Assembly: GCA_964498245.1 (NCBI GenBank)
Contig: CAZCGK010000002.1
Location: forward strand, 6,133-70,132
Reading direction: 5' to 3'
Length of the DNA: 64,000 nt
DNA from: an uncultured archaeon
Lineage (GTDB): Archaea; Aenigmatarchaeota; Aenigmatarchaeia; QMZP01
Numbering within the stretch: position 1 is the first letter of the stretch; each line of letters starts with the position of its first letter. Below the pieces are notes generated by a model that did no database searches, was not told the DNA's origin, and saw nothing but the letters and a program-made list of their open reading frames with translations. A program made the translations under genes and the position numbers. Shown here one piece after another: positions 10,330 to 41,174 of this stretch.

Positions 10330-13300
10330 ATGAAACAGGTGACCATTTCACTAATTGTTTGCATATTTTCCTTCCTGATTCTTCTGCAACTGAGCGCTGC
10401 AGAAACTCTGACTTGTTATATAAAAGACCCTTCAGGAACTGCTATACGAAGCAGTCAAACTACCTTTGGATTCTATACAAGTGCAACATATACATGTTCA
10501 GCATCATGCCCTTCTTCGGATTCTTCATGTTGCCAGAAAGAAGGACAATACACTTGGCAGGTGGTTTCAAGTTATGACGGAAGCACAGTTTCAGGAAATG
10601 CATACTATGTCAACTGGGATGGTTCCTCTACCTGGTGCTCTTGTCATGGTGATACTTGGGTAAGCAGCGTTTCCAAGTGCTGTGGTGATGATGGTTCAGC
10701 TGATGATTGGTGTGCTGGTGGATATACAAGTTGTTATGATGGTGTTTACTATACAGATGGTGATTCAAATTCCTATACATGTTCCTGTGGCGGAGGTTAT
10801 TGGAACATAGGTGGTGAAGTTGCTGGAAGTTCTTGTTGCGGTGATGATTCAGGAGAGTACAGAAGAACACGCCAGGCTGGAACAGATTCCACATATTCAT
10901 CCGATTCTAACGATGATGCGTGTTGCAATGCAAACAACAAATGTGTATATAATTCTGTATGTTACGCTTCTACTTCAACGTTAGGCTCGATACCCAATAA
11001 GAATTACTGTGATAACGGTGTTTGGGTAGGCGGAGATGCTTCTGAAACAGCCTGCACAGCAATTGCTGGTTCAGGAAGGTGGAGTATAGGCGGAGAAGTG
11101 GCTGCCACAACATGCTGTGGTGATGATTCTGGTGAAAATTACAGGATATGCCAAGATAATAATGAAGGATATTGCGCCAGATCGAGTGATAATACTGCAT
11201 GTTGCGATTCACAATATGATTGTGTATTTGATGATACATGCTATTCTTCTGGAACTGTGCAAGGACAGTGGAGGTGCGAATCCGGGACATGGCATGATTT
11301 TATACCACCTGTTACAACGGATGATGCAACCAGTACATGGACGAATACGGATCAAATAGTCACATTAACCTGTGATGATGATGCAGGTTCAGGCTGTGAT
11401 ACAGTCAGATACTGTATAGGTTCAAATACATGCACTCCAGAAATAACAGAATATGATATTTCAAGTGGTTCTTACAAGGTCTCTGTGACATGCCCAGCCG
11501 GTTCGGTATGCAAACAGTATGTAAGATACCAGTCAAAGGATAAGGCAGGAAACTGGGAAGATATTAAAACCTCAGCAGAAACGAGAATAGATAAAGAAAA
11601 ACCAACAACTTCCATAAAACTTTCCGGAGTCGAAGGGGATAATGGCTGGTATGTATCTGATGTTACGGTGACACTTTCTTGTGATGACGGTAGCGGTTCA
11701 GGCTGTAGTGAGACTTACTATTGTGTGGACCAATCTGATTCCTGTACACCAAGCGTGAAATACACAGGACCATTTTTAATTTCAAATGAAGATATAAACT
11801 ATGTTCGATATCATTCAAAGGATAATGTTGGGAATGTAGAAGATGTTAAATCCACCGAAGTCAAAATAGATAAGACACCACCAACAGCATGGATAAACCC
11901 TCTTCCTGAATGGACGAATTCAAGTGATGGTTCTGGTGATGTATATTTTGATGTATACTGGAATGGAGATGATGGACCTACCGGTTCAGGAATAACGAGT
12001 TACAGCATTCAGTATATAATATACAACAGAGCAACTGGAAATTATGTCACAAATAACTGCGGAACAGCTGATTGGTGTGATTGGATTACAAGGGATGAAA
12101 CAGATCCGAAACAGGAAATATTTGGTCTTCTGGACAATCCCGAAAATGTAGAGGCATTCAACAATCACACATTTCTTTTCAGAATAAGTGCAAAGGATAA
12201 TGCAGGAAATGTAATGGATTATTCTATAAACCCACCCTGGGAAAATACATCTATCGATGTGGTTTCTCCTGTAAGCGCAATATCTACTGTATCCTATCCA
12301 GGAGAACTCATAGTAGAGGCTTTCTGGCAGGGTTGGGATAATGAATCAGGAGTAGCATACTATGATGTTCAAAGCAATATGAGCGGCTCTTGGGATTATC
12401 TCACAGATACAGACGGAAACAGTACATATCATACTACAAAAACTTCAGGTAATTTCAGTGTTTCATCCGATGGAATTTACTATTTCAGGGTAAGAGCAGT
12501 AGATAGAGCAGGAAATGTAGAAACCCCCTGGAAATACAGCTCGGTTCTTGTGGATGTTTCACCTCCTGTTGCTTGGATGGAAGAGCCCTATAATGAATGG
12601 ATGAAATTTTATAATTTCACTGTAAATTGGTCCGGATACGATACAGGTAGTCCACCTTCTGGAATCAAATGTTACGATGTTCAGTGGAGTAATGATACGA
12701 TAAACTGGAACTATATCCAATACAATGAATTTGGTGATTTGACAGAGTGTGTACTTCTAACGGAAACCATATTCGGCCTTTACGGATTTACTGATTTAAA
12801 AGATGGCATTACATACTATTTCAGAGTTAGAGCTACAGACAATAATGGAAATATCGGTAACTGGAGTGTGAAAAACACAACAATAGATACGTATTCTCCC
12901 GTTATTATAGTTAACGTAACAGACGATAAAGGAAGAGAGATAATAGAAGGCTATGTTCCAGCAGATGTAAAAAACATTACCATAACCTCAATGGCATGGG
13001 ACAACATTTCAGGTATAAAAAAGCATACCATTCACTATTGGCTCACTCAAAACAACAAATACACATACGGTGAAAAGGAATGCGGCGAAGCACTACCATG
13101 GGGAGATTGGAGTAACTGTTCCATAACCTTTGCTTATGATGAAGACACGGTGATCAAATATTATGTGAAGGCAGAGGACAGAGCAGGAAATGTAAATACA
13201 ACACCGATAAGGTTTACAACCTCTCACCCCCTTGCAAATTTTGTAATTCACCAGGCAGCTATCGGTTTGGGAGATTCAATTCTTCTTAAAGTTCAGGTGA

Positions 13301-13662
13301 GAAACATCCAAGAAACCGTGGACAATATAACCATATCCATTGAAAGCACGATCACCTCAGCAAAACCAAAATTTGAAAATATAGGCTCTGGAGATTTTGA
13401 AATTCAGGCAGACGGAAAGGTCTTACAAGTTTATAACTTAAATCCAATGGAAGAAAGAGAATTTTTTGTGAGAATATATTCCAGCGAGATAGGGACCTAT
13501 TATCTGAACATGACAGCTCAATCAAACGTTGCACAGCCGGGTCTTATTGATACAGACAGTGCAAAAATAATTATCGGTTATCCCCCTTCATTCCCCGGTC
13601 TTGCACCATGGAGTATTCTCCTGCTTGTAATACTTTCGGTTACGATTTTCTTAATTATTTAA
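10330..13662 (+). CDS. large secreted Cys-rich surface protein with Ig-like repeats and a C-terminal PGL+TM sorting-like tail
   Basis: It has a signal peptide and N-terminal about 330 aa with repeated CCGDDSGE/CCGDDGS Cys motifs. These are followed by repeated (F/Y)R(V/I)(R/S)A(x)D(x)AGN(V/I) Ig-like/FN3-like modules. The C-terminus is PSFPGLAPWSILLLVILSVTIFLII. Confidence 0.65.
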   Translation: MKQVTISLIVCIFSFLILLQLSAAETLTCYIKDPSGTAIRSSQTTFGFYTSATYTCSASCPSSDSSCCQKEGQYTWQVVSSYDGSTVSGNAYYVNWDGSSTWCSCHGDTWVSSVSKCCGDDGSADDWCAGGYTSCYDGVYYTDGDSNSYTCSCGGGYWNIGGEVAGSSCCGDDSGEYRRTRQAGTDSTYSSDSNDDACCNANNKCVYNSVCYASTSTLGSIPNKNYCDNGVWVGGDASETACTAIAGSGRWSIGGEVAATTCCGDDSGENYRICQDNNEGYCARSSDNTACCDSQYDCVFDDTCYSSGTVQGQWRCESGTWHDFIPPVTTDDATSTWTNTDQIVTLTCDDDAGSGCDTVRYCIGSNTCTPEITEYDISSGSYKVSVTCPAGSVCKQYVRYQSKDKAGNWEDIKTSAETRIDKEKPTTSIKLSGVEGDNGWYVSDVTVTLSCDDGSGSGCSETYYCVDQSDSCTPSVKYTGPFLISNEDINYVRYHSKDNVGNVEDVKSTEVKIDKTPPTAWINPLPEWTNSSDGSGDVYFDVYWNGDDGPTGSGITSYSIQYIIYNRATGNYVTNNCGTADWCDWITRDETDPKQEIFGLLDNPENVEAFNNHTFLFRISAKDNAGNVMDYSINPPWENTSIDVVSPVSAISTVSYPGELIVEAFWQGWDNESGVAYYDVQSNMSGSWDYLTDTDGNSTYHTTKTSGNFSVSSDGIYYFRVRAVDRAGNVETPWKYSSVLVDVSPPVAWMEEPYNEWMKFYNFTVNWSGYDTGSPPSGIKCYDVQWSNDTINWNYIQYNEFGDLTECVLLTETIFGLYGFTDLKDGITYYFRVRATDNNGNIGNWSVKNTTIDTYSPVIIVNVTDDKGREIIEGYVPADVKNITITSMAWDNISGIKKHTIHYWLTQNNKYTYGEKECGEALPWGDWSNCSITFAYDEDTVIKYYVKAEDRAGNVNTTPIRFTTSHPLANFVIHQAAIGLGDSILLKVQVRNIQETVDNITISIESTITSAKPKFENIGSGDFEIQADGKVLQVYNLNPMEEREFFVRIYSSEIGTYYLNMTAQSNVAQPGLIDTDSAKIIIGYPPSFPGLAPWSILLLVILSVTIFLII

Positions 13663-13863: not shown

Positions 13864-16302
13864 TTATCTTTTCTTTCTACCCTTCTTTGATGTTCTCTTT
13901 CTGTGTCTCTTTGTATTCTTCCTTCTTTTAGTTTCCTTCTCCTTTACAATTTCCAGTTTCACACCATTCATGAGGTTTATGAGGCTTTCCCTTGTATACG
14001 TTCCTGTATCTCTTCTCTTGTTTTTGAGCCTTATCGTGAGAAATGATATTATCAAGATTGATATAAACAGGGAAGCGGTGTTCACTATGGTTGAAGAATT
14101 TGTTGCGAGATAGGAACCTATAAAATCTGTGAACTGCGATTGTGTTGATGATCTTATTTCTCCACTAATCCCTTCAGGTTTTATATTCAGAACAAAACTG
14201 TCAGCGTTTTTCTTTTCCAGTTCATCACACTCCACCTTCATGGTCACAGTATAACTATTCTTTTCCGGAGATATTGGAGTTATATGAATGTATATCTTCT
14301 TCTCATCTCCCGGGGCAATCTCAGTTATCTCCTTTGGTTCAAAATCAAACCATTCGGAAGGAATTCCTTCTACATTTATTCTAAGATTGTGCATCGTCTC
14401 CTGACCGGTGTTTATTATCGATACCTCGATTGTGGATTCTCCTTTCTCAGGAATCTGTGTCTTGATTGGGAGCGCCCACATCAGTTCCCTCTTTTTCACA
14501 ATCGAAATATCCTTGGTAATACCCGTTGATCTGAATAACGATTTACTGACATTTATATAGAGTATATGCATACCCTCTTTGTCAGGGGCTCTCAAAGTTG
14601 CAGAAAACACACCATCAGAGTTTGTTCTGGTCTCCCCGGAAACGTCACCCAATCTGTATTTCACTATTGCATTGTCCACCACTCTTCCGTCACCTCGCCT
14701 TACAGTCCCTCTGAGTTTTATAATATCATTGAGATAATACTCCTCCCTGTCAGTTCCTGCTTCAATCTCCAGTGTTTCCCTTTCTCCAACAACAAAAGCT
14801 GAGAGGTGGGTTGAATCAAACCTTACAACATTTCTTGTTACATCAACATCCGAATCAATTCTTTCCCATACACCCGAACAGATTCTCGCATCAAGATTCC
14901 AGTTACGACAGGTGTAAACCTCGATATTTGTTTCATCAACAATCTTTGATGCATCGTACTTTATCTGCATAAACACCCTGTCAAACTCCAGTGCAAACTC
15001 CAACGCAATACCAACAGCAATCTTAAGTCCTTCAATTTCCGCATTCTGGAATGAATCATATCTTATCACATTTTTCACATTCTGATCAATCATTACGTTA
15101 TAGAAATCTGCTGTAACACCTGGAAGATTAACTGTTACGGAGTAATTTCCCTTCGGAAGATAACCAGAGTATCTCCCACCACCGAGGTTTATCGTCTTTG
15201 ACCAGCCATTTCTATAAAACTTAATATTCCCTGAAACTGTCTTTCCGTTTGCATTGAACAGTTCTCCGCTGAAGGAAACAACATATTCTATCACCTTCTT
15301 TGATGAAAATTTAATCTCTTCATTATCTCCATCATCATCAACATCTCCTGTATAATCAACCGAGACGATCAATTCATATGATCCAGGAGCCAGATCAGGC
15401 GCCTTTATAACAATCTCATCAGTGCCTGTTCTCTGGAATTCAATATCCTGATTATTCAATCTTACCGAAACACGGTTTATTATGCGACTCAGTATTGGAG
15501 AATCATGATAGAATGCATCGAGTTTTATGGTTATGTTCTCGTTTCCTCTTATTTCACTCGGAGTTATAGAGGAAATACGGAACACAGAAGACGGAAAAAC
15601 ATCTATATATCTCTTATCAGAAACTGTTTTGTTCTCAAAACTAACTCTCAGCGTCAGCGATATGCTTCCATACATTTTCAGTTCAGGAAGGTTTATCACC
15701 CAGTGTCTGTTTATATTATCAAAAAAAATCCTGTTTGATGGTATGATTACATAATCCCCATCATTAACTGAATAGGAGAAACTTACATCCCTTGGACTGG
15801 TTATGATACTTTCCGAATCATCCGTCTTGGTTATTTCTGCAGTTATTTCTAGGGACGAGTCATCATAAATAACGTCTGGATGAACATCAAGAATATTAAT
15901 GTCAAGCCTTTGCACAGTGAGTTTCAGGTATTCCTCTTTCCTGACATTATTTTCAGATTCATCAGCTTCACAGACAACTGTTATGTTATATGTTCCGAGA
16001 TGCTGGGGAATAAAACTATTGGAATACAAATCTTCTGATTTTTCCAGCGGAATGAAAAATGATACAGCAGGGTGGTCAACAAGAGCATAAACCCTTTCTA
16101 CCGTTCCGTTGGTGGTTTCACATTTGCACGATATGGTTACAGATTCACCAACCCATACTTTTGGACCGGGATGCAGTACGATATTACTCAGAAGAACTTC
16201 AGCCCTGACAGAAAGGGGGCATACAATCATTACAACACATATTATCAAAAACAGAGCAGAATTCTTACAAACAAACTCCTTTAATCTCTTCCTGCCCTCC
16301 AT
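13864..16302 (-). CDS. large secreted/membrane-anchored surface protein (signal peptide, C-terminal TM helix and basic tail)
   Basis: It has an N-terminal hydrophobic signal and a C-terminal TM helix followed by an Arg/Lys-rich tail. Sequons are abundant. Confidence 0.55.
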   Translation of the reverse strand: MEGRKRLKEFVCKNSALFLIICVVMIVCPLSVRAEVLLSNIVLHPGPKVWVGESVTISCKCETTNGTVERVYALVDHPAVSFFIPLEKSEDLYSNSFIPQHLGTYNITVVCEADESENNVRKEEYLKLTVQRLDINILDVHPDVIYDDSSLEITAEITKTDDSESIITSPRDVSFSYSVNDGDYVIIPSNRIFFDNINRHWVINLPELKMYGSISLTLRVSFENKTVSDKRYIDVFPSSVFRISSITPSEIRGNENITIKLDAFYHDSPILSRIINRVSVRLNNQDIEFQRTGTDEIVIKAPDLAPGSYELIVSVDYTGDVDDDGDNEEIKFSSKKVIEYVVSFSGELFNANGKTVSGNIKFYRNGWSKTINLGGGRYSGYLPKGNYSVTVNLPGVTADFYNVMIDQNVKNVIRYDSFQNAEIEGLKIAVGIALEFALEFDRVFMQIKYDASKIVDETNIEVYTCRNWNLDARICSGVWERIDSDVDVTRNVVRFDSTHLSAFVVGERETLEIEAGTDREEYYLNDIIKLRGTVRRGDGRVVDNAIVKYRLGDVSGETRTNSDGVFSATLRAPDKEGMHILYINVSKSLFRSTGITKDISIVKKRELMWALPIKTQIPEKGESTIEVSIINTGQETMHNLRINVEGIPSEWFDFEPKEITEIAPGDEKKIYIHITPISPEKNSYTVTMKVECDELEKKNADSFVLNIKPEGISGEIRSSTQSQFTDFIGSYLATNSSTIVNTASLFISILIISFLTIRLKNKRRDTGTYTRESLINLMNGVKLEIVKEKETKRRKNTKRHRKRTSKKGRKKR

Positions 16303-17075
16303 ATGTTCAATTTTATTTTATAGCTTAAATAGATTATTAGAAGAATGATAAGCATTAAAATGATAATAAACGGAGCAAAAGCATCAGACCGAGATTTTTC
16401 CTTTTTCAGAAGGACTGTTTTCTTTTGAATGAAATTTCCGTCCTCTGTGATTAAAGTAAATTCAACAGAGGATTCCTTCCAGATCGATGGTCTGTACGGT
16501 ATTCTTGCTTTTTTTATCTGTCCGGAGTTCATGAAATCTATCCTTGCTGATTCCATTATCCAACCAACAGGGTATTTACTGGGAATTACAATCAGATTTT
16601 TGACATCCTGATTACTTCTTATGTAAATATCTATATAATCATCGAATGTATGAACATCTACTATTTCAAAATTACCGGCTTTGCTTTTCTTTGGTTTTCC
16701 TTCAAAATAATATGGACCGAATTTAAAAATCTCGTTGCAAAAATATATTCTTACATATACTGTATAGTTTCCCTCAGGCAGATTCGAGTAAATATCCATA
16801 TCAGCATGGCTCCCTGGCCATAAAGGCTTTGCCCTGCTCCAGCCTGTGTACACAAGTTTAGAAGTATTATAGAAATCTGCTCTTGCTCTTACCTCGCATC
16901 CAACAGAACCGATATTTTCCCATGTAATTGAGATTTTCTGGGGAGGCTTTGTGCTTATGTTTATCCATGCAAGACTTCCCTGTATTACACTTTCTACATT
17001 CACATCAACATCCAGAGCCGCAACTGCAGGTATTAAACCCATAACCAATAGAACAGTAAAAAATCTCACATTCAT
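16281..17075 (-). CDS. secreted protein with a C-terminal membrane anchor, hypothetical
   Basis: It has a signal peptide and a C-terminal TM segment. Confidence 0.45.
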   Translation of the reverse strand: MNVRFFTVLLVMGLIPAVAALDVDVNVESVIQGSLAWINISTKPPQKISITWENIGSVGCEVRARADFYNTSKLVYTGWSRAKPLWPGSHADMDIYSNLPEGNYTVYVRIYFCNEIFKFGPYYFEGKPKKSKAGNFEIVDVHTFDDYIDIYIRSNQDVKNLIVIPSKYPVGWIMESARIDFMNSGQIKKARIPYRPSIWKESSVEFTLITEDGNFIQKKTVLLKKEKSRSDAFAPFIIILMLIILLIIYLSYKIKLNIWRAGRD

Positions 17076-17103
17076 TTCACCACCCTTAACTTTTGATCTT
17101 TTT

Positions 17104-18084
17104 TCATTTTTTCCACCAGTAGATTCCTATAAATATAATCAAAATTATCATTGAGATTACCCAAAAAGGAAAAACCCCCGGTGCCTGTTGTGCAACAACC
17201 GCTCCTGTAGTTTCCATTTCAGGTGGATGAATTTGAATTTCACCTGTATCCTGATAATCTCCTGTTTCCCATGAAACCCTTGCCGATATGTTGTATATAC
17301 CGGGATTGATATTTGCAGTGTCCAAGTATGCATGTAATGCCACTATCTGTCCAGGTCTGATAAACTCTGATGTTGTTTTAAGCCTTGCTATTATATCACT
17401 CTCATTGTTGCCGTATATTCTTATATCACTTGCCTTCACTCTCATGGTCACAGTCCCGTTATTTTTAAAAAACACATCAATAACCTCCATACCTCCTGCA
17501 CGCCTCGAACCGAATCCTGCTATATAACCGGATCGCACAGCATTTCCAGAAACTCTGAAGATTATTCTGAATTCCACTGATGCTATTGTTCCTATACCAA
17601 GTCCTGCTCCCTGAATACCGGACCTCGGTTTAAACCTTATAACACTTGAATGGTATCCTGGTTCTGCATTTTCAGGAATATTCAATATAACTGTCACCCT
17701 TTTATTCGCAAGCAGTGTTCTGCCAGCTTTTGTCCTAAAATTTTTCTTGTGAGGGGGGAGAAGAACAGGATTTTCGATGAACTCCACCCATCTATGAGAA
17801 TATTCCTCCGAAGCCTCAGAGAGATTGAAATCATAACCAGTTCTCGGTCTTGAGGAACTGAAGAAATCAGGATTTCCCGGGGATGATATCATATCCACTA
17901 CGAGGTTGGTATTACTATCTGTTATGAGGAAAAACTCTATGAGATGGGTTGAACCCGGTCTCACTTCTCCCAAATCAACAAAACCCGGCGAAACTCCTAT
18001 TGAAAGCGACTGTGCACTACCTGTAAAAATACACAGAAACGCAATAGAACTCAAGAAAAAAACACGAAGTTTACCATCCAACAT
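17104..18084 (-). CDS. secreted protein with a C-terminal membrane anchor, hypothetical
   Basis: It has a signal peptide and the C-terminal TM helix VFPFWVISMIILIIFIGIYWWKK. Confidence 0.45.
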   Translation of the reverse strand: MLDGKLRVFFLSSIAFLCIFTGSAQSLSIGVSPGFVDLGEVRPGSTHLIEFFLITDSNTNLVVDMISSPGNPDFFSSSRPRTGYDFNLSEASEEYSHRWVEFIENPVLLPPHKKNFRTKAGRTLLANKRVTVILNIPENAEPGYHSSVIRFKPRSGIQGAGLGIGTIASVEFRIIFRVSGNAVRSGYIAGFGSRRAGGMEVIDVFFKNNGTVTMRVKASDIRIYGNNESDIIARLKTTSEFIRPGQIVALHAYLDTANINPGIYNISARVSWETGDYQDTGEIQIHPPEMETTGAVVAQQAPGVFPFWVISMIILIIFIGIYWWKK

Positions 18085-18195
18085 AGAATTATATACGAAT
18101 CAAATCAATAAAAATCTTGGAGACGGTTTTTTAAAGTTAACAAAGCAATCACTTACATGAAGATTTAAATATCACCTCGCCACTATATATATAAC

Positions 18196-19047
18196 ATGAA
18201 ACAAAGAATTGTTTCACTATTATTCGTTTCTGCCATGCTTCTGTGTTTTGTAGGATTGGTGATTGCAGCTACTGATACCGATACAGCAACATTCGATGTA
18301 ACAGTTTCTTCCATAGTGATGATTGATATACAGCCAAACTCAACCAGCTGGACTGCATATCCAGGAAATACAACATCTGCAGTTGATTTTTCTTTGGTAA
18401 ATATAGGTTCATCAAACATAACAAGTATCTATCTTACTGCCACAGAGCCAAGCTCCATGCCCTTCGGAACAACCACAGCAACAAACTGGGATGCAGGAAA
18501 CTTTCTAGAAGTAAGCAATGATACAGGAACTACATATTATTTTGTCAACAGAGTAGAGTTTAATGAAAGCGATTGGCCGGATTATTTAACCTTACCATCG
18601 AATGCTAAGGCTGTAGGAAGATTCAGGATAGCGGATAATGAATACTTCTGGGCTCTCGAAAGCGGTTTGGTGAACTGCAGCAACGGAACAATATATATAG
18701 GAACCACACCGCATACACCATCAGATAGTGGTGATACAAATCTTACAGATAATTCCCATACATTACAACAAGACGGAAGCTTGACTCATGGTCTGGTTGA
18801 TGCAAAGATAGGCAACCAGTGGTACTGCATCGTAGTAGATGCGGATTGCACCAAGGTGAGGATGGTTAAGTGGAACATCCAATATGATGAGGATGCTGGA
18901 AAGTGTACAAACGATGGATATGTTTACACAGGAACATTGTTACCAGGAGAGAGCTTTGAAATAAAGGTAAGGGCAAGAATACCCTTGGGTGTTGCAAGCG
19001 GTGATGTCACTACAGGAACACTCACGGTTACAGCAAGCGATACATAG
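18196..19047 (+). CDS. secreted protein, hypothetical
   Basis: It has an N-terminal signal peptide and a Thr/Asn-rich product. Confidence 0.45.
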   Translation: MKQRIVSLLFVSAMLLCFVGLVIAATDTDTATFDVTVSSIVMIDIQPNSTSWTAYPGNTTSAVDFSLVNIGSSNITSIYLTATEPSSMPFGTTTATNWDAGNFLEVSNDTGTTYYFVNRVEFNESDWPDYLTLPSNAKAVGRFRIADNEYFWALESGLVNCSNGTIYIGTTPHTPSDSGDTNLTDNSHTLQQDGSLTHGLVDAKIGNQWYCIVVDADCTKVRMVKWNIQYDEDAGKCTNDGYVYTGTLLPGESFEIKVRARIPLGVASGDVTTGTLTVTASDT

Positions 19048-19137
19048 GCAAGTAGAACGGTAATGACAAAACTGTTTATTTTATTCGTTAATTAGTTCAT
19101 TTATTTTTTTGTTTACTAAATAATTATTAGTGAAAAA

Positions 19138-20511
19138 ATGTCAGAAAGTTCCTCCGGCTTCTGTTTATTCCAAAAATCAAAAATCTCTGTTTTACTTTTG
19201 ATACTGATTTTGTTGATATTTATCATTTTTTTTCACCAATTCACGGGTTTTGTGACAAATGTTATTAGATTTGCTATTGAAATATTCCCTTTGACAAAGG
19301 CTTGCATGTGTTTCACATCATATCCTGATGTAGTTGTGCAGGGCACGCAGAGTTATTTCACTGTGAACACCGAAAATTGTGGTAATAGAAATTTATCTGG
19401 AAGGGTTGTTTTCAGCATAATAAATTCATCCAACAATACTGTGCATCAAGAAGTTTCAGATCCATTTTCCCTTTCTGTTTCCGAAGCCAAGAGGATTACC
19501 TTTGGATGGACAGCTGATGTTCCTACTGGTAGTTACAGTGCACATGCAAAATATGTTGTTAACGGAACCGTCTTATCAGAGATACAATACAATTTTGAGG
19601 TTGTTCTGATAATCTGCATTCCAGGTGAAACAAAATGTTTCGATAATGAGGTAAGAGTGTGTTCCTATGATGGAACCAGATGGTTATTTTTAGAATACTG
19701 TGAATATGGATGTAGCAATGGTGCTTGTATTCAACCTCCACCAGCCCCACAACCTGGAATACAGGTGTCCAAACCTGTAGCAAATATTTATGTTGAATAT
19801 CCTGACACTGTTGAAATACCCCAGGGAGTGAACTATACAATCCCGCTGAAAGTCGTAAACATCGGTGATGTTATCCTGCATAATCTTAACCTCTCGGTAA
19901 AGCACTCAGGAAACATGTCGGTTTCAATAACATCTTCGTTCGTACCAGTTCTTGATATCAACTCCTCTGTGATTTTTTCTATTGAAGTCAGTGTGCCATA
20001 TAATATGCCGATTGGAGAGTACTGGATTGACTGGGAAATATCCGCAGAAGAGATATCCAAGAAAGGTAGAATAATCGCAAATATAACTGTAACATCCTTG
20101 AAAGCGAAATGCGAAGAGCTCATATCTCATTATTCCTGGCTTTTGGATTATATGGAAAAGGAGATAAAGATTGCAGAGTTTGAAGGGGCAGACGTAACAA
20201 AACTGAAAAAACTGATTGATGAAGCGAGGGATGATTTCGACATAGCAAAGAAATTCTACTCCTTTGGCATGTATTTAGAATCTCTCGAGAAACTGGAGTC
20301 CGTCAGAAAAAAGATAGAGTATATTGTTATTGAATTAAAGAAAGCCAAAATAGAAGCAATTCCGTTAAAAAAAGAGATTGAGATGCGGCTTCCACTGATA
20401 TCTCTTTATATACTTATAGCATCAGTTTTTGTATGTGCAGCAGTGTTCATAACAGTAAAGAAGTTAAGAGAAAGGAAAAGGCGTACTGAGTTAATCCTTC
20501 CGAAGGTTTAG
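19138..20511 (+). CDS. membrane protein with an extracellular domain and a C-terminal TM helix, hypothetical
   Basis: It has an N-terminal TM helix, a C-terminal TM helix plus basic tail, and an internal coiled-coil segment. Confidence 0.45.
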   Translation: MSESSSGFCLFQKSKISVLLLILILLIFIIFFHQFTGFVTNVIRFAIEIFPLTKACMCFTSYPDVVVQGTQSYFTVNTENCGNRNLSGRVVFSIINSSNNTVHQEVSDPFSLSVSEAKRITFGWTADVPTGSYSAHAKYVVNGTVLSEIQYNFEVVLIICIPGETKCFDNEVRVCSYDGTRWLFLEYCEYGCSNGACIQPPPAPQPGIQVSKPVANIYVEYPDTVEIPQGVNYTIPLKVVNIGDVILHNLNLSVKHSGNMSVSITSSFVPVLDINSSVIFSIEVSVPYNMPIGEYWIDWEISAEEISKKGRIIANITVTSLKAKCEELISHYSWLLDYMEKEIKIAEFEGADVTKLKKLIDEARDDFDIAKKFYSFGMYLESLEKLESVRKKIEYIVIELKKAKIEAIPLKKEIEMRLPLISLYILIASVFVCAAVFITVKKLRERKRRTELILPKV

Positions 20512-20513
20512 TA

Positions 20514-21344
20514 TTATTTATTTTTTCCAGCATACCAGAGAGCTGCTGAAATAACAGCGGTTATTATAAGAATTATTATTGAGGATGAATACGGACCATT
20601 AATTATATTACTGACCGCACCTATCATTCCTGTGATGGTGTTTTCTGGGTTCTCTATATCAATCGGTTCTCTTCTGTCTGATTGCTCCTCTCTGTCCCTC
20701 CTGACCGGTTTATTCTTCACACTTCTCTCAATTTCTGATGATGTATTATCATTCAAGCCAACTGAAAAATTCTCTGCATTTATATAAGTATTGCTTTTTT
20801 CTGCATTTTCCTGATAAATTCCTGTAATATTCTGGTCTCCCATTACATTAACTTCAAATTTAAAGCTTCTTAACTGAGAGGTTGTCAGTATGTTTTCAGG
20901 ACCCTTTACCACTGCAGATAATCTTATATAATACTTCCCTGGTTCTATGTTTTGCGGTGTTTTGACCATAACCCTGACCACTCTTGCTTTGATATCACCA
21001 TGACCCGTTCCGAGAAACTCGTATCCTTCCTCCAGTTCTGAACTTCCAGGCTCTGAATAAGGGAGATAGAAGTTTTTTGGGGTTATTGTTATGTTAAACC
21101 CCTTTGGCAACTCTGTAACATTCATGCTGACATATATTCCAGGTTTTTCATGAATGTTGAAAAGGAGTATTTTGAAGCTTGTTACATCCCCTGGCAGAAT
21201 ATCTATAGATTTCTTTCCATAAGCACTACCAAGAGGTATCACTGCATGGATATTCTGTATTGATAGAATCAAGAAGAATACTAACATTACCAAAAATATC
21301 ACTGCATATCTTCCGTTTAAGTTCACTTTATGGTTCTTCACCAC
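20514..21344 (-). CDS. secreted protein with a C-terminal membrane anchor, hypothetical
   Basis: It has a signal peptide and a C-terminal TM helix. Confidence 0.45.
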   Translation of the reverse strand: MVKNHKVNLNGRYAVIFLVMLVFFLILSIQNIHAVIPLGSAYGKKSIDILPGDVTSFKILLFNIHEKPGIYVSMNVTELPKGFNITITPKNFYLPYSEPGSSELEEGYEFLGTGHGDIKARVVRVMVKTPQNIEPGKYYIRLSAVVKGPENILTTSQLRSFKFEVNVMGDQNITGIYQENAEKSNTYINAENFSVGLNDNTSSEIERSVKNKPVRRDREEQSDRREPIDIENPENTITGMIGAVSNIINGPYSSSIIILIITAVISAALWYAGKNK

Positions 21345-24300
21345 TTTCCACCCCTTCTATATATAGAGTTCCGGTATAGTTATCCGCAGTTATTCCGAAC
21401 GGAATATCTATCCAGTAGTACATGGTTACATTTGTGGATGGCGAAACGGCCTCTTTGAGCAGATTCCAGGAATAACCCAGTCTGTAACCACTGCTGTATT
21501 CATTCGTTGCATTATTCCATGTTATGTTTCCAACCTGAATATAATAATTATCGTTTAATGATCTGTTCAGGTCTGTTCCCTTTATATAAAGATCAACATT
21601 ACATGTTGTTACGGACTCCACTGTAATGTTGTAGTTGTCATTGACATTCCCAGGAGCTGAATTGTTGGTTGTTCCTGGTTGGAGGTTTCCAAAATCTATA
21701 CTATCCCACTGAAGGGTTATGTCAAGAATACAGGACACTATCTGAATGGTATTATTATCTGTGGTGTTATCATCCAGATATGACATGTTTGATTCAAGAA
21801 GCGCGCCGATTTTGTAGCTCGATCCTATGGTGCCTGTAGCATTCACATTCCATACCAGTTCACAGTATTCATCCTTGTCCAAAGGATTTCCGGAGCAGTT
21901 CTGGGGATTGGGATTGTCCGTAATGTAAAAAGGAGTGTCACCTTCAGTTGTGCTTATATCCGTGTCAGGATTACTTGATGTGGAGTTGTATCTGATTCTG
22001 CCTGTTACATTTCCGCAGTAACCCTTTCTACAGTAGACAGTCACGTTTACCAAGAATGTTGTGTTCTGTGCAACATTTTTCTGATCTACAGGCTCCACAA
22101 GCATGACCTCGAGATAGCCCTGTTTTATTGTTATAGAATCATTTGCGCTGAGGGGCTCATAATCCTGTACAGATCCGTTGCAGGTAACATTCCAGGAATA
22201 GAAACCACCCAGGGAGAAAGACCTGTTGTATTCATAAAGAAGGCTGGAGGAATTGAATGTCATGTTGAAGGGACCGTATGGACTTACATTGAAGGATATC
22301 TCACAGTAAACCCCTGATCCATTGATAGGCTCTCCGGAGGTCAGGTTGGTGTAGTTCGCAAAGAATGTAACATTCTCGTTCACATAAACCGTCCTGGATC
22401 CACCTTCAGGATCTGTTTGATCCCATATACTCAGATTGGAATTTGCTGAGGAGGAATAATTGGTGAAATGGGTTACGTTGAATGAAAGGGTTCCAGAGGA
22501 ATAGCTTGTTATAACGCAGTCAGGAGGATTGCATATTTTCCCATCCCTTAATATTACAGGGGTGTGGAGATAGCTTAAACCATAAAATGTGATGTTTGCA
22601 GAGGTATTGAATGTGTCATTCAGGTTTGCAGAATCCACATCCACGAAATTATATCCGAAGGTTATGTAGGTATCAAAATCCGCCCAGCTTGCATTCACGC
22701 AACCGTACCACACAATCCTGAACACGCCCACCTTTCCTAACAAGGGCTGGCACACATTGGTTATATCCTCCACACTCTCAAAGTCTGTGGTTTCAGGATC
22801 ATCGAAGTTTGCATAGGATGGGGAGGGGAATCTTATTGAGAGGCTTCTCTTTTCAGATTCCTTTTCGTTTGCACCATCAGAGCATGTTATCCACCACTCG
22901 TAATCCCCATCAGCAAGAGTTTCATTCACCTGAATGGTTGTTGAGCTATCATTCAGAGCATTCACCGTTCCATAGGGTTTAGGTATTCCGGTTCCTGTAT
23001 CCGTTCTGTTGAGGAAAATCTCGCAGCTCAGGGTTGATGCCCTGTCATCACTGGTATTAAATATGAACTTTGGCACTCTTGTAGTTGTATTTATTGTATT
23101 GTTTGGAGGATATTCAAGATTTACACTTGGCGAGGTCGAATCAATTATAAGGGTTCTGTTTGTATCAGACCAGTCCTCATTCCCTGATGTATCATTGCAG
23201 TACACTCCCCATTTCCATTCTCCTTCAGGAATGCCACTAACGGTTACATACCATACTGTATTGTTTATCGGGCTTGAATTGGTCTGGTTTGCTGACCACA
23301 CACCAGACCAGTCTGACCAGAGCTGGAGATAATCGGGCTGAACATCATCCCAGCACTTTAGTTCGAATGTAATTGTGGACGAAGAGGAGATGTAGTTATC
23401 AGGCGGGTTCGTTCCGAACTTTGCCACAGGTGGGCTGGCATCGGATAGATATGCAAATATTACATCTATGTATGGAGGGAGGTTACTTTCGTTGCTGAAC
23501 GATACGGTTACGTTATGGTTGTGATACTCGTCTGCTACGCTTACCTGCTGTCCTATCGACCTTCCCCTGTCCCAGCTATCAGATGCCCAACTTACTGATA
23601 TGACAAGGTTGTCATGTGTGTGATTTTCCGATCCTCCGGTTGCTCCGTATGCTGTTGAACCAACTATGAACCTCTTGTAGAAATCCCCTCCAGGATTGGA
23701 CATCACTATCCAGTTGGAGGGTGGTGTGCCATCGAACATTCCTATCAGGCCTGTAGGTATTTCTGTATCAGATTCTGCCTTCGCAAGGGTGACATTTATA
23801 AACGGAGGTCTGTGATCTGCTGTGCTTGTTGGTCCTCCAGAACCTGTGTGGGTATGATCACTGATTGCTGCATCTGTCGAATATACCTCAGTACCCACTG
23901 TCCCTTTCGCTATGCTGAGCGTTATCTTCACTGTAGAATGGTAGTGTGTATTATTACCTCCTGTGGATATGCTCGCGTTGCCCATGACAAAATATCCATC
24001 CTGTGCTATGTATAAACTCCAGCCAGGGGGAATGCTCTCATTGAATATTGCTATGGCCCCTGCAGGTATGGTTGTCGGGATTCCGCTGTCATACACTATC
24101 ACCTTCAGGCTTCTGTAAGAGGGCAGGGATGTTGCGTTTGAAACCGAATAGGAACTTATGCCTCCATGGGTGTGGTTTGCGCTTGATGGGTGAGACTCAG
24201 TACCTTCCCTTGCTGATAACGTATCCACACATGCAGTTTCGTTTACGTAAATCACGGCATGTGTGTGTGTCTCAGAACCACCTGTTGCTCCATATTTCTC

Positions 24301-26451
24301 ATTACCTCTGGGAAACCTTTCGTAGAATGGGTCTCCTGGAGAGCAGGATATGCATGTCCAGCCCTCTGGTGCATCAACAGTTTCGTTATCCCAGAATAAT
24401 ATTAAATGTGTTGGAAGGATTATCCTTCTGATCTCTGATTGGTTTTGCTTTGCATAGGCATTGGCACAGCTTATCCACCAATCGTAACTACCCTTTAGAA
24501 GACTTGAGTTGGCTGTAAGGGTTGTGAGGGTGTTATTAAGCACTGAAGTATTTTCATCATAGGGCTGAGGTGTTCCTGAGCCTGTATCTGTTCTGTTTAT
24601 CCAGAGTGTGCAGGAAAAGGTTGTGGAGTAGACATCGTATACTGTGAAGGTAAAGCTGGGTGTTGTGGTGGTGATTTCTGCATTGTCTTCTGGGGAGTGC
24701 AGTTCTATGTGGATTGGTGTGGGTGAAAGAGGAAGGTAATCCTTTGCCCAGGAATAATCAGCAGAGATATTGTATTCTGAGTCGCAGATGCCGTTGCCAT
24801 CCTGGTCTTGGCATGTATCAGAGAAGTTTCCATCCGGATCTGTCCAGTAGTTTCCTCCTATGCAGGGACCTCCTATTATGTTGGTTTGACCTGAGCAGTT
24901 AAGGCTGGTGTTGAAAAAGTTCGGGTTATCTATGTGGTCACCTATCTCTATGTTTTGCGTGTTGTTGAAAAAGTTATTATAGATGCAATTGTATTCTGGG
25001 TCCCAGTTTACATCACCACTTGCAGCCTTAAGACCTATACCTTCAGCATTGTTTGTTATAATGGAAGAGGTTATGTTATTGTAGTCAGAATCCCCATAAA
25101 GGAGGATTCCTTCATCATAGTTATAATTTGCTGTGATATTGGTGAGACTGTTATTGTTACTCTGGCATATGTAGATTCCACGATCGTTGTAATTTACTGT
25201 GATGTTAGTAAGAATATTGGAGGAAGAAGAGTCGAGGCAGATTCCACGATAGTTGTAACTTGAATTGATTTGGGAGAGAGTTGTGTTTTCTGTTCTCAGA
25301 AGGTAGAGCATGTTATTTTTCTTTGTTGGAGAACCGAGGATTGTTATGTTTGTTAGGTTGGAATTGTCTGCGTTGCAGAGGATAAGTTCTGAGAGGGTTT
25401 TATCCTGAAGGTTTACGGAGTAGTTGTAGTATTCTATGGGTCTTCCTCCTGAGCCTGTGATGTTCTGGAGGAGGTTGTTGCAGTGGGAGTCTTCAGAGGT
25501 AGATATAGCGAAATCATATACATCATTTTCCTGCAGGGTTATGTTGTGAAGGGTGTTAAAGGAGGAGGAATAGAGGTAGATTCCATCCTCGCTATTGTAA
25601 TTTGCTGTGATGTTGGTGAGGATGCTATTGTTGCTGGAATATAGGTAGATTCCGTGATAATTGTAATTTGCTGTGATGTTGGTGAGGGTGTTGGAGGATG
25701 ATGAATCAAGATATATTCCATTCCAGAAATAACTTATGTTCCCGCAGTTTTTGATTGTATTATTATCCGAAGAATCATTGAGCCAGATTCCGTAGCCGTA
25801 AGAGTCTCCGTCTCCTGAGATTGTGTGGCCTGCGCAGTCAAAGGTTAGATTGTCTGCTCCTCCGAATTTTATGCAGGATTCTCCGGAGTCTGTGTTATCA
25901 TTTGCGCCTGCATAATTGGTTATGTCTGCTGTAAGCTTTAGAATGTCTCCTGAAATCATGGTTCCGTTCTGGAGGTAGGAAGAGCATTCTTCGCAGGAGG
26001 AGCATGTGTAGACAGCGAAGTTTTCTGTATATTCTATATCCTCACCAAAGCGGAATTCCAATTTATGCATCTGGGATGTGAGAACCCTGAATGTTGCATA
26101 TCCAGTTTTACTGCATGCATAATCCCTCACAAGAATCGAATCCGTTCCATTCAGCCATGTATAATTTAGCATGAGATTCCCGCACCTTATTTCCACAAAT
26201 CTCAAATCATAACCAGAATCAGCATGATTGCTTAAAGTTGTACCCACAGGTGAGATTATGAGATCTGTTCGACCCTTCGTGATAAATGCCACAGTCCAGT
26301 TTCCACCCACAACAGGATAGCTCTGAGGATTCAGTATCTCTATCTCCGGCTGATGTAGAAGAGCCTTATCAGAAGAAATCTGAGACATTCCAAGAATCAC
26401 TATCAATGCTCCAAGCAAAGCCTTGTGAAAAAAACAGACATCCAAACTCAT
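21328..26451 (-). CDS. giant (1707 aa) secreted surface protein with right-handed parallel beta-helix (PbH1/NosD-like) repeats and duplicated His-rich modules
   Basis: It has a signal peptide and repeated NITANYNYxGIYL beta-helix repeats. Two copies of a YGATGGSE(T/N)HTH ... H(T/N)H module are present, and NxS/T sequons are very dense. Confidence 0.65.
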   Translation of the reverse strand: MSLDVCFFHKALLGALIVILGMSQISSDKALLHQPEIEILNPQSYPVVGGNWTVAFITKGRTDLIISPVGTTLSNHADSGYDLRFVEIRCGNLMLNYTWLNGTDSILVRDYACSKTGYATFRVLTSQMHKLEFRFGEDIEYTENFAVYTCSSCEECSSYLQNGTMISGDILKLTADITNYAGANDNTDSGESCIKFGGADNLTFDCAGHTISGDGDSYGYGIWLNDSSDNNTIKNCGNISYFWNGIYLDSSSSNTLTNITANYNYHGIYLYSSNNSILTNITANYNSEDGIYLYSSSFNTLHNITLQENDVYDFAISTSEDSHCNNLLQNITGSGGRPIEYYNYSVNLQDKTLSELILCNADNSNLTNITILGSPTKKNNMLYLLRTENTTLSQINSSYNYRGICLDSSSSNILTNITVNYNDRGIYICQSNNNSLTNITANYNYDEGILLYGDSDYNNITSSIITNNAEGIGLKAASGDVNWDPEYNCIYNNFFNNTQNIEIGDHIDNPNFFNTSLNCSGQTNIIGGPCIGGNYWTDPDGNFSDTCQDQDGNGICDSEYNISADYSWAKDYLPLSPTPIHIELHSPEDNAEITTTTPSFTFTVYDVYSTTFSCTLWINRTDTGSGTPQPYDENTSVLNNTLTTLTANSSLLKGSYDWWISCANAYAKQNQSEIRRIILPTHLILFWDNETVDAPEGWTCISCSPGDPFYERFPRGNEKYGATGGSETHTHAVIYVNETACVDTLSAREGTESHPSSANHTHGGISSYSVSNATSLPSYRSLKVIVYDSGIPTTIPAGAIAIFNESIPPGWSLYIAQDGYFVMGNASISTGGNNTHYHSTVKITLSIAKGTVGTEVYSTDAAISDHTHTGSGGPTSTADHRPPFINVTLAKAESDTEIPTGLIGMFDGTPPSNWIVMSNPGGDFYKRFIVGSTAYGATGGSENHTHDNLVISVSWASDSWDRGRSIGQQVSVADEYHNHNVTVSFSNESNLPPYIDVIFAYLSDASPPVAKFGTNPPDNYISSSSTITFELKCWDDVQPDYLQLWSDWSGVWSANQTNSSPINNTVWYVTVSGIPEGEWKWGVYCNDTSGNEDWSDTNRTLIIDSTSPSVNLEYPPNNTINTTTRVPKFIFNTSDDRASTLSCEIFLNRTDTGTGIPKPYGTVNALNDSSTTIQVNETLADGDYEWWITCSDGANEKESEKRSLSIRFPSPSYANFDDPETTDFESVEDITNVCQPLLGKVGVFRIVWYGCVNASWADFDTYITFGYNFVDVDSANLNDTFNTSANITFYGLSYLHTPVILRDGKICNPPDCVITSYSSGTLSFNVTHFTNYSSSANSNLSIWDQTDPEGGSRTVYVNENVTFFANYTNLTSGEPINGSGVYCEISFNVSPYGPFNMTFNSSSLLYEYNRSFSLGGFYSWNVTCNGSVQDYEPLSANDSITIKQGYLEVMLVEPVDQKNVAQNTTFLVNVTVYCRKGYCGNVTGRIRYNSTSSNPDTDISTTEGDTPFYITDNPNPQNCSGNPLDKDEYCELVWNVNATGTIGSSYKIGALLESNMSYLDDNTTDNNTIQIVSCILDITLQWDSIDFGNLQPGTTNNSAPGNVNDNYNITVESVTTCNVDLYIKGTDLNRSLNDNYYIQVGNITWNNATNEYSSGYRLGYSWNLLKEAVSPSTNVTMYYWIDIPFGITADNYTGTLYIEGVESGEEP

Positions 26452-27269: not shown

Positions 27270-28049
27270 TCACCGGCGTTTTTTTACAATGCTTATTTTC
27301 TCAAGCCCTTCTTTTACATCCTTTTTCATTCTTTCAAATCTTTTTTCATACACAGAAACAAGGTCATTTATATAGCTTATCACATACTCCTTAAACTTTT
27401 TTATCTCTTCTCTATTTTCCTTTATTTTTTCTGATTGTTTGCTTATCGCATTTCTCAGCTTCTTTACAGTTTCCATTACATCAGCATCTCTCATTTTCTG
27501 GCTGTTAATATAGTTTTCAATGTTTTTTACTTTTCCCTTGACTACCGCATCAAAGGCTCTCTCATGTGATTTGATCACACTGTCCACATAGGACTCCATG
27601 TTTTGCTTGAATCTTTTTATATCCGTCCTGCTTTCTATCATGTCAACATCCCTTTTTAATCTCTCAACAACCATTCCCAGGTCTCTGAGCTGAAATTCTA
27701 CCAATTTTTTCAATTCCTGTATATTGTTTTTATTAGTTTTCAGATTCTTTGATATATTTTGGATATCAAGAATGAGTTCATGCATTTTTTCTTCAAGAGT
27801 GTTGAGTCTATCAGAGTCGGTTAAAGTCCTCTTATTTATATCCTCCACACTCTCTCTGAGATTTTTCAAGGAGGATTCAATGGCATTTATTTTGCTGGTA
27901 TTTCTCTCTATGGAATCAGAAAACCTGCGAACAAGATTTTCATAACGTCTTCTCCACTCCTCCCTTTCTTTTTTCAGCAGGATTATTCTTTCCCTCATAC
28001 CCTTTAAATTCATATTATCACAATCTCCTTTATTCCAGAAACAATCCAC
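27270..28049 (-). CDS. coiled-coil protein, hypothetical
   Basis: It is highly charged with heptad-like composition and has no enzymatic motifs. Confidence 0.45.
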   Translation of the reverse strand: MDCFWNKGDCDNMNLKGMRERIILLKKEREEWRRRYENLVRRFSDSIERNTSKINAIESSLKNLRESVEDINKRTLTDSDRLNTLEEKMHELILDIQNISKNLKTNKNNIQELKKLVEFQLRDLGMVVERLKRDVDMIESRTDIKRFKQNMESYVDSVIKSHERAFDAVVKGKVKNIENYINSQKMRDADVMETVKKLRNAISKQSEKIKENREEIKKFKEYVISYINDLVSVYEKRFERMKKDVKEGLEKISIVKKRR

Positions 28050-32704: not shown

Positions 32705-32864
32705 CAGAAACACCTGTAGGATAGATAGCTTTAGCCTATTTAAATGCTTTATTGAAAATATTTTCACAAGACGGGGTTTCAACACCGCAATAAGAAAGGA
32801 AATTTTATAAAAATTTCTAAAATATTTTTTGTAATATTATAAATTTTTTACTAAGGGTGAAGAA

Positions 32865-40920: not shown

Positions 40921-40962
40921 ATATCCCAACATCCCAGAATATGTATGTACACATTCTGGGAG

Positions 40963-41035
40963 TGGGCCGGGCAGGATTCGAACCTGCGACCCCCGCCACG
41001 TCAAGGCGGTGTCATAACCACTAGACCACCGGCCC
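40963..41035 (-). tRNA. tRNA-Val (anticodon GAC)
   Basis: It folds as a canonical 73-nt cloverleaf with no intron and no encoded CCA. Confidence 0.85.
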
Positions 41036-41101: not shown

Positions 41102-41174
41102 TGGGTCGGCCCGGATTCGAACCGGGGATCTCCGCCGTGTGAAGGCGGCGTCCTAACCGCTAGACCACCAACCC
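41102..41174 (-). tRNA. tRNA-Val (anticodon CAC)
   Basis: It folds as a canonical 73-nt cloverleaf with no intron. Confidence 0.85.

Follow-up and report, generated by a model that had tools for sequence, protein, structure and literature searches.

The DNA analysed here, a stretch of 64,000 nucleotides called the window throughout, comes from an uncultured archaeon of the Aenigmatarchaeota (contig CAZCGK010000002.1 of assembly GCA_964498245.1, positions 6,133 to 70,132) and carries an island of genes for envelope proteins, the longest of which encodes a giant surface protein of 1707 amino acids (aa). The initial annotation had credited this protein with a duplicated histidine-rich module, and the two sequences on which it had relied, YGATGGSETHTH at aa 720-731 and YGATGGSENHTH at aa 935-946, are both present. 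The module is, however, not duplicated: it occurs in three tandem copies, the middle of which (aa 795-896, STGGNNTHYH...DHTHTG) had been missed. Each copy contains two histidine-x-histidine (HxH) motifs, and these six, all within aa 729-979, are the only HxH motifs of the protein. The copies follow one another with linkers of 0-3 residues and share one layout, in which a collar-like base is followed by an outgoing HxH strand, a hypervariable tip of about 27 residues, a returning HxH strand and a closing PPY strand. In the list below the first HxH motifs of the three modules are grouped as site A and the second ones as site B, with the triplets read from the translations; the E-values come from a local single-target hmmsearch with a hidden Markov model (HMM) of the module, built from the module alignment A4.

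24079-24417, minus strand: His module 1 (aa 679-791), collar-like and without insert, HxH at aa 729-731 and 760-762, E = 3e-35
23764-24069, minus strand: His module 2 (aa 795-896), HxH at aa 836-838 and 866-868, E = 6e-31
23440-23760, minus strand: His module 3 (aa 898-1004), HxH at aa 944-946 and 977-979, E = 8e-41
24259-24267, minus strand: site A, HTH of module 1
23938-23946, minus strand: site A, HYH of module 2
23614-23622, minus strand: site A, HTH of module 3
24166-24174, minus strand: site B, HTH of module 1
23848-23856, minus strand: site B, HTH of module 2
23515-23523, minus strand: site B, HNH of module 3

N-x-T sequons overlap two of these motifs, at aa 759-761 (24166-24177, A-N-H-T-H) and aa 943-945 (23614-23625, E-N-H-T-H), and a third immediately precedes the HYH of module 2 (N-N-T-H-Y-H); sugars at these sequons, should they be glycosylated, would adjoin the presumed metal ligands.

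Homology and conservation of the triple module

Profile comparison shows the module to be remotely homologous to the phage tail-collar and HxH tail-fibre-tip (MdpB-type) family. In a database of 5.8e9 sequences the A4 profile reaches, at E = 7e-7, a protein of 141 aa (P0195) in which the Pfam Collar domain PF07484 (E = 3.8e-23, 81.6 bits) is followed by TGGSIDHTHT...THTHDV...NPPFISLNYIIKT; PF07484 is found in all of the best 120 of the 2245 relatives of this protein (E <= 0.001), several of which, where named, are called 'microcystin-dependent protein'. Alignment of A4 with that of the P0195 family (A5) by hhalign gave a probability of 98.4% and an E-value of 6e-15 over 101 of 109 columns, with both HxH motifs and the PPY strand in register. 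The A5 profile in turn reaches fibres of solved structure, namely 8kec (3e-12), T4 gp12 (1ocy, 1.7e-6), the tip of T4 gp37 (2xgf, 1.2e-3) and 9nxk (2.5e-3), and the HxH motifs of the module align with those of the collar family and of gp37. In gp12 two histidines of each of the three chains, His445 and His447, bind a zinc ion octahedrally on the threefold axis (PMC3004832); gp37, with seven HxH motifs in every chain, binds seven iron ions at them (PMC11705849). A Foldseek search of the predicted viral structures in BFVD gave first two proteins of phage phiAsp2, Pas28 (E = 1.3e-15, query template modelling (TM) score, TMq, 0.59) and Pas29 (E = 3e-13, TMq 0.61); a protein named 'Phage tail collar domain containing protein' and the tail fibre of an Aeromonas phage came next, both with E-values of about 1e-3 and probabilities of 0.99-1.0. 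Pas29, which is encoded in a tail gene block and annotated as a possible receptor-recognising protein with HXHY motifs, has three tandem modules. The histidine-rich region had been described as possibly a metal-binding or catalytic site of unknown type: metal binding is likely, but the type is that of the collar/HxH fibre tip, and catalysis is unlikely.

In Pfam, NCBIfam and PHROGs the triple module found no match even at E <= 1, the 37 family members submitted to a Pfam scan share no Pfam family, and PF07484 itself was matched neither in the giant protein at E <= 0.1 nor in these 37 members at E <= 0.01. Among PDB sequences only chance-level matches were obtained, both with the triple (phmmer) and with the module profile (hmmsearch), and a Foldseek comparison with the PDB gave a best E-value of 0.3 with a TM score below 0.1. 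A tblastn search of 50,697 phage genomes with the archaeal triple module returned nothing at E <= 0.01; a single module from bacteria of the Candidate Phyla Radiation (CPR), used as query in these genomes, did reach Pas29 of phiAsp2. Neither a pseudo-trimeric tail collar nor a tail collar in Patescibacteria was found described in the literature. The triple module is a previously unannotated form, of which no description was found in the searchable literature. The view that it lies outside any well-known family holds for Pfam, NCBIfam and PHROGs, all of which miss it, but not at the level of profile-profile and fold comparison, which place it in a known superfamily.

At the level of sequence similarity, the matches to the triple modules go far beyond chance. 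A word-indexed search returned 36 database proteins with the triple unit, most of them covering about 93-97% of all three modules. In a scan of one genome per species, with an alignment of nine sequences as query, 44 loci were found; in these genomes of other phyla and in the 36 database proteins the triple unit is 30-54% identical. The loci belong to Methanocellales, Woesearchaeota, Methanobacteriota, Chloroflexota, Actinobacteria, Geobacter and many CPR bacteria (Saccharibacteria, Paceibacteria). Searching 1.84 billion cluster representatives with the HMM of a single module yielded 3661 proteins at E <= 1e-3, of which 1397 remain at E <= 1e-10 and 472 at E <= 1e-30.

The count of three is the key feature of the module. 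Among the 34 host open reading frames (ORFs) with a clear match at the 44 loci, 31 have three modules and the other three have six, arranged as two separate triplets, and none has four or five. The best 147 of the 3661 representatives comprise 117 proteins with three modules, 23 with six and 2 with four, and they contain 150 tandem runs of exactly three modules. Furthermore, 213 of 216 modules have their nearest relative in another protein at the corresponding place of its triple, which would predict a single origin, and the mean identity is 38-40% between modules of the same position across proteins, compared with 28-32% between different positions within one protein. The triplication is therefore old and each position constrained separately, and such position-wise constraint is what would be expected of three copies packing in fixed places.

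Conservation of the histidine motifs in homologues had been chosen beforehand as a test of the claim. All six histidines of site B are kept in 66 of 72 related units and all six of site A in 41, with 25 more units keeping five of the six; the giant protein itself has all twelve. Between the HxH motifs the sequence of the tip is hypervariable (2.9-3.0 bits versus about 1.5 bits), but its length hardly changes (23-37 residues), and in some modules of three relatives (P0074, P0121 and P0180) 140-200 extra residues stand between the first and the second HxH.

From an alignment of 37 sequences, AlphaFold2 predicted the triple as an all-beta structure with a predicted local distance difference test (pLDDT) score of 91.3 and a predicted TM score (pTM) of 0.86; module 1 alone, predicted from 30 module sequences, reached 71.4 and 0.50, respectively. 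The HxH hairpin of module 1 is unstructured in the lone prediction (pLDDT 51-63), whereas in the triple it is modelled as four strands, mostly at 91-98 with one block at 81. The triple is conserved as one unit, in line with its module counts and with this confident, compact model.

A further set of relatives (L035-L044 and L046-L048), from weaker matches of the genome scan and from three viral contigs, carries a single insert-less module as the extreme C-terminus (...LPPY..V.FCKK[ND]), and its hosts include CPR fibre-like proteins with GNVGIGT repeats, a PilV-like pilin and viral tail-fibre-like proteins. The pilin, from Saccharibacteria (L037, 9503-10324), has 274 aa, matches PilV/Shufflon_N at E = 2e-14 and terminates in one His module, at the place taken in PilV by the segment for recipient specificity; this architecture suggests that an episymbiotic CPR bacterium has an adhesin at the tip of its pilus. 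Three of the 2.9 million viral contigs in IMG/VR matched the patterns used, and all three (L046, 7101-8402; L047, 7676-8335; L048, 6462-8450) are single-module, their proteins ending in IPSGMIAMF...PPY..VV.C.KD with 3-6 HxH motifs each. A single module at a presumably trimeric fibre end is thus the common form, with the fused triple a derived one.

The module has very diverse hosts, among them giant proteins of up to 6807 aa, fn3 arrays and cell-wall-binding repeats and, at four loci, extracellular multihaem cytochromes. The latter contain 37 CxxCH motifs in a Methanocellales protein (L001, 9890-17482), 11 each in the two Geobacter loci L030 and L036, and 15 in L013 (Actinobacteria); in L013 the triple is internal, in the other three cytochromes it stands at or near the N-terminus, and it may be a targeting head of electron-transfer proteins. 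Such diverse host architectures fit a portable binding head. The Chloroflexota homologues (P0002-P0022 and L007), of about 500 aa, have a conserved N-terminus after a hydrophobic segment (F.D.E.S...W.S..W.QTSQ.DFEAG), which may resemble SipW-type signal peptides, and a conserved C-terminal beta domain (RYKQWRATL...EVRVYYY).

The giant protein in its surface-protein island

Outside the His modules, the following features were recognised in the giant protein.

26371-26451, minus strand: signal-peptide-like N-terminus (aa 1-27), with a hydrophobic segment at aa 5-23
25972-26337, minus strand: N-terminal domain (aa 39-160), common to Woesearchaeota proteins that also carry the triple module
24829-25893, minus strand: right-handed parallel beta-helix, PbH1/NosD-like (aa 187-541), by Pfam and NCBIfam
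22849-23088, minus strand: immunoglobulin (Ig)-like domain (aa 1122-1201), Pfam Big_13 at E = 4.6e-4, below the gathering threshold

The N-terminal domain is 47-49% identical (tblastn) to two Woesearchaeota loci, L002 and L004, where it adjoins and in part overlaps the start of the module match. The beta-helix, already proposed in the initial annotation, is borne out by the Pfam models NosD (aa 361-541, E = 4e-25, 88.9 bits, cut-off 23.6) and Beta_helix (aa 187-318, E = 8e-16, 58.5 bits, cut-off 25.9) and by the NCBIfam model para_beta_helix TIGR03804 (E = 7e-10, 38.4 bits, cut-off 19.45), all above their cut-offs. The Ig-like domain at aa 1122-1201 looks, by eye, repeated just before the triple module (aa ~577-680), and the protein has no C-terminal transmembrane segment.

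All seven ORFs ascribed to the island were recovered where they had been placed, and an eighth gene was added; with the flanking genes, the locus reads as follows.

10330-13662, plus strand: eighth island gene, 1110 aa with 47 cysteines, signal peptide and C-terminal transmembrane segment, weak Ig/fn3/Big_13 matches
13864-16302, minus strand: envelope protein of 812 aa
16281-17075, minus strand: envelope protein of 264 aa
17104-18084, minus strand: envelope protein of 326 aa
18196-19047, plus strand: envelope protein of 283 aa
19138-20511, plus strand: envelope protein of 457 aa
20514-21344, minus strand: envelope protein of 276 aa
21328-26451, minus strand: giant surface protein of 1707 aa
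26482-27228: ParA/MinD ATPase, flank of the island
27270-28049: coiled-coil protein, flank of the island
29744-30934: glmU-like gene, flank of the island
30935-32785: glmS, flank of the island

The description as a cell-surface protein island holds. In a hydropathy scan six of the seven proteins have an N-terminal hydrophobic segment, and the seventh, of 326 aa, is signal-peptide-like by eye. A C-terminal transmembrane segment with a basic tail, which had been claimed for most of them, is present in five by hydropathy and absent from the 283-aa protein and the giant, so that five of the six smaller proteins are type-I-like, with both signal peptide and C-terminal anchor. CARDB/NPCBM_assoc Ig-like domains were matched by Pfam in two of these six. 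A UniRef fragment at least 90% identical to the 326-aa protein carries the name DUF916. Because the gene at 10330-13662 shares the design of signal peptide and C-terminal transmembrane segment, the island reaches past the start first assigned to it and comprises at least eight genes; since these lie on both strands, they must form at least three transcription units. The extreme density of N-glycosylation sequons (N-x-S/T) ascribed to the island applies to the giant protein only, with 88 observed against 35.9 +/- 5.1 in composition-preserving shuffles, and is moderate in the 457-aa protein (9 against 2.7 +/- 1.6) and the 283-aa protein (8 against 3.9 +/- 1.7), but the other four proteins are at expectation.

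Horizontal acquisition, which had been put forward for a check of composition, finds mild support for the giant gene, whereas the other island genes look native. The GC content at third codon positions (GC3) of the giant gene, 0.446, is the highest in the window, where all other genes lie at 0.28-0.43, and its codon-usage distance from housekeeping genes, 0.134, is large for the longest gene; this composition gives mild support to an acquisition of the giant gene alone.

The flanks are as described, with the ParA/MinD ATPase, the coiled-coil protein, the glmU-like gene and glmS all found, together with an archaeal ATPase gene; the link proposed between the genes for uridine diphosphate N-acetylglucosamine and a glycosylated envelope is one of gene proximity only. 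Adjoining glmS, a 310-aa protein (32865-33797, plus strand) has a C-terminal match to the Methanococcales-type S-layer model TIGR01564, with 27.1 bits for the whole protein (E = 1.6e-6, cut-off 25) and no single stretch passing alone. The window further contains the archaeal markers aIF-2/5B, Kae1, archaeal RqcH and type II methionine aminopeptidase (MetAP).

At the 44 genome loci the other island proteins are not encoded near the module (tblastn), with the exception of L032, where the 326-aa protein has one weak match. When metagenomes were scanned with this protein and with that of 812 aa, the result was nothing, or just one 97%-identical fragment, and the other island genes have too few relatives for a comparison of synteny. 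Metagenome-assembled genomes labelled Aerophobetes and Spirochaetes (DRJ04_, DRP54_) hold fragments at least 90% identical to the giant protein, to its neighbours and to an archaeal-type MetAP; as the window is clearly archaeal, the contigs concerned are probably mis-binned.

Two adjacent tRNA-Val genes lie at 40962-41035 and 41102-41174 (minus strand), with anticodons GAC and CAC. At 411-1820 (plus strand) the window encodes HxsB, the radical S-adenosylmethionine maturase of a His-Xaa-Ser system (TIGR03978, E = 1e-137, above the cut-off). A link between this system and the His modules was considered and dropped: the HxS repeats are in a small peptide, about 20 kilobases away, and nothing connects the two.

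A putative single-chain binding head and its alternatives

We consider it probable that the triple module is a single-chain pseudo-trimer with two metal sites of six histidines each (His6) and a variable tip, acting as the binding head of a surface adhesin. In detail, aa 679-1004 consist of a shortened tip unit of phage tail fibres, present three times in tandem. Phages and fibre-like cell proteins place one such unit at the end of each chain and assemble three chains about a threefold axis. In the archaeal protein the three protomers are fused in one polypeptide, and the most likely fold is a single compact knob with pseudo-threefold symmetry. One His6 site (A) would be built by the first HxH motif of each module and another (B) by the second, giving two metals per knob; the metal would be Fe2+ or Zn2+, as in gp37 and gp12, with a structural role. 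The ligand bound by the variable tips would probably be a glycan or a protein of another cell or surface. The whole protein would then be a heavily glycosylated, secreted or surface-associated adhesin, in which the beta-helix and the fibre tip, both typical parts of phage receptor-binding proteins, are combined with Ig-like spacers. The pseudo-threefold geometry, the metal binding and its stoichiometry, the adhesin function and the ligand are inferred.

Several observations weigh against this interpretation. In the hhalign alignment a segment of about 30 residues, CDG..Y..LF..GDGSTTFNLPD in the collar family, is a gap in the module, and Pfam Collar fails to match the module, probably because the absent segment falls inside the 57-position stretch covered by the Collar model. 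In 30 of the 72 related units site A is without one or two histidines, and it is incomplete in 31, one of which keeps a single histidine; as far as these sequences indicate, a full His6 at site A is not obligatory. The top cluster representatives were ranked by summed score, which favours multi-module proteins; runs of four or five modules, however, would rank higher still, yet they are nearly absent. The AlphaFold2 runs for the single module and for the triple were built on different alignments, and the pseudo-threefold packing and the clustering of the histidines are deduced from pTM, module counts and homology. The module of the giant protein is internal (aa 679-1004 of 1707) and not at a fibre end.

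Among the alternatives, the modules might be independent metal-binding beads, each with its own four histidines and one metal, the number three being incidental. Each module has exactly four conserved histidines, and tandem independent domains are common in surface proteins, the giant protein itself having several Ig-like repeats. All solved homologues are nevertheless obligate trimers with the HxH side chains facing the axis (PMC3004832, PMC11705849). The counts, which are three or six at each of the 34 genome loci with a clear match and for 140 of the 147 representatives, the conserved signature proper to each position of the triple (213 of 216 modules), and the pTM of 0.86 for a triple with linkers of 0-3 residues, set against the poor model of a lone module, further argue against beads, which we regard as unlikely.

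Metal-stapled needles such as gp12 and gp37 are very stable. This stability, the internal position of the triple between Ig-like spacers and the absence of an anchor in the giant protein would also suit a rigid structural spacer or an S-layer-associated scaffold, stabilised by metal and without a specific ligand. That role is quite unlikely, however, in view of tips that combine a fixed length with the highest variability, as is typical of binding surfaces exposed to diversifying pressure, of the 140-200-residue inserts of some relatives, which fall exactly between the HxH motifs, and of the single-module relatives, which occupy the specificity-determining tip in PilV-like pilins and phage fibres.

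The giant gene could also be viral cargo that lies in the island by chance and codes for the tail fibre or receptor-binding protein of an archaeal virus, integrated or defective, or of a tailocin-like element. The combination of beta-helix and fibre tip is typical of phage receptor-binding proteins, the closest fold matches are from phage, and the GC3 and codon usage of the gene are atypical. We hold this to be very unlikely: an N-terminal signal peptide and heavy sequon enrichment are what secreted glycoproteins of archaea typically show, the gene is surrounded by those for membrane-anchored envelope proteins, for ParA and for sugar-nucleotide synthesis, and the annotated neighbourhood contains no capsid, portal, terminase, integrase or tail genes. 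Moreover, most relatives are in giant cellular surface proteins, some with multihaem cytochromes or cell-wall-binding repeats, whereas the few viral contigs that matched (three of 2.9 million, with the patterns used) are all single-module.

HxH motifs occur in metal-dependent enzymes, and PbH1 beta-helices are frequent in polysaccharide lyases and hydrolases. An extracellular metalloenzyme (hydrolase or oxidase), with the HxH clusters as catalytic metal centre and the beta-helix binding a polymer substrate, is nonetheless the least probable reading of all, since the Pfam matches indicate fold and not activity, no enzyme family or solved enzyme was matched by aa 675-1015 or by the module profile in Pfam, NCBIfam and PDB sequences, the only detectable homologues are non-enzymatic fibre tips, whose metal is buried on the axis with six histidines filling its coordination and no substrate site left (PMC3004832), and the region beside the histidines is hypervariable, unlike an active site.

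To the single-chain pseudo-trimer we add, with more doubt than conviction, a possible history: a trimeric, metal-stapled phage tip would have been taken by cells and fused into a monomeric 'single-chain trimer' head, insertable anywhere, which would have spread across the domains of life as a widespread recognition determinant. If so, the triplication would have freed the fibre-tip fold from its trimeric shaft, and it would be a natural conversion of an obligate homotrimer into a single chain, as protein engineers do deliberately. The module would then be an unrecognised determinant of cell-cell and cell-surface recognition, including the attachment of CPR and DPANN symbionts to their hosts, and of contact with partners or minerals in extracellular electron transfer; the cytochrome fusions in Geobacter and Methanocellales suggest candidate targeting heads for extracellular electron-transfer proteins. 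Phage-type HxH metal sites would be extended to cellular envelopes; such sites are of interest for environmental iron binding (PMC11705849). A testable identity is also provided for a domain that lies outside the four libraries searched and yet is found in 3661 cluster representatives, with many giant surface proteins among its hosts.

Comparison with known systems

Several known systems resemble parts of the giant protein, each with its own differences. PbH1/NosD archaeal surface proteins account for its N-terminal third only and leave the His modules unexplained. Among the PilV pilus tip adhesins (Shufflon_N), the module of the Saccharibacteria protein sits at the exchangeable specificity segment, whereas the giant lacks a pilin domain and carries its module internally and as a triple.

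The PF07484 family, with COG4675 MdpB and gp12, shares with the module the motifs G.I..F/W, P.GW, RF..G, TGG..H.H, H.H and PP[YF]...I. Its members have a single module and are presumably trimeric, while the archaeal unit is a triple in one chain, and they possess the segment CDG-sAVSRTTY..GDGSTTFNLPD, which the archaeal module lacks. T4 gp37 (2xgf) is a homotrimer with seven HxH motifs per chain and seven iron ions, whereas the archaeal module has two HxH motifs and its three 'chains' are fused; the 140-200-residue inserts of some relatives match the position of the receptor-binding head of gp37. Tips related to gp37 are those of Bizionia prophage C24 (6ov6), cyanophage A-1(L) (8kec) and Pseudomonas phage Pa223 (9nxk). 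Like gp37, they are fibre-end structures of phages with a long collar insert, in contrast with the archaeal module, which is internal, encoded by a cellular host and without the insert.

The closest arrangement is that of Pas28 and Pas29 of the Actinoplanes phage phiAsp2, the only annotated proteins found with the same single-chain triple. They are viral and uncharacterised by experiment, with more HxH motifs per module, longer loops and about 20% identity to the archaeal triple.

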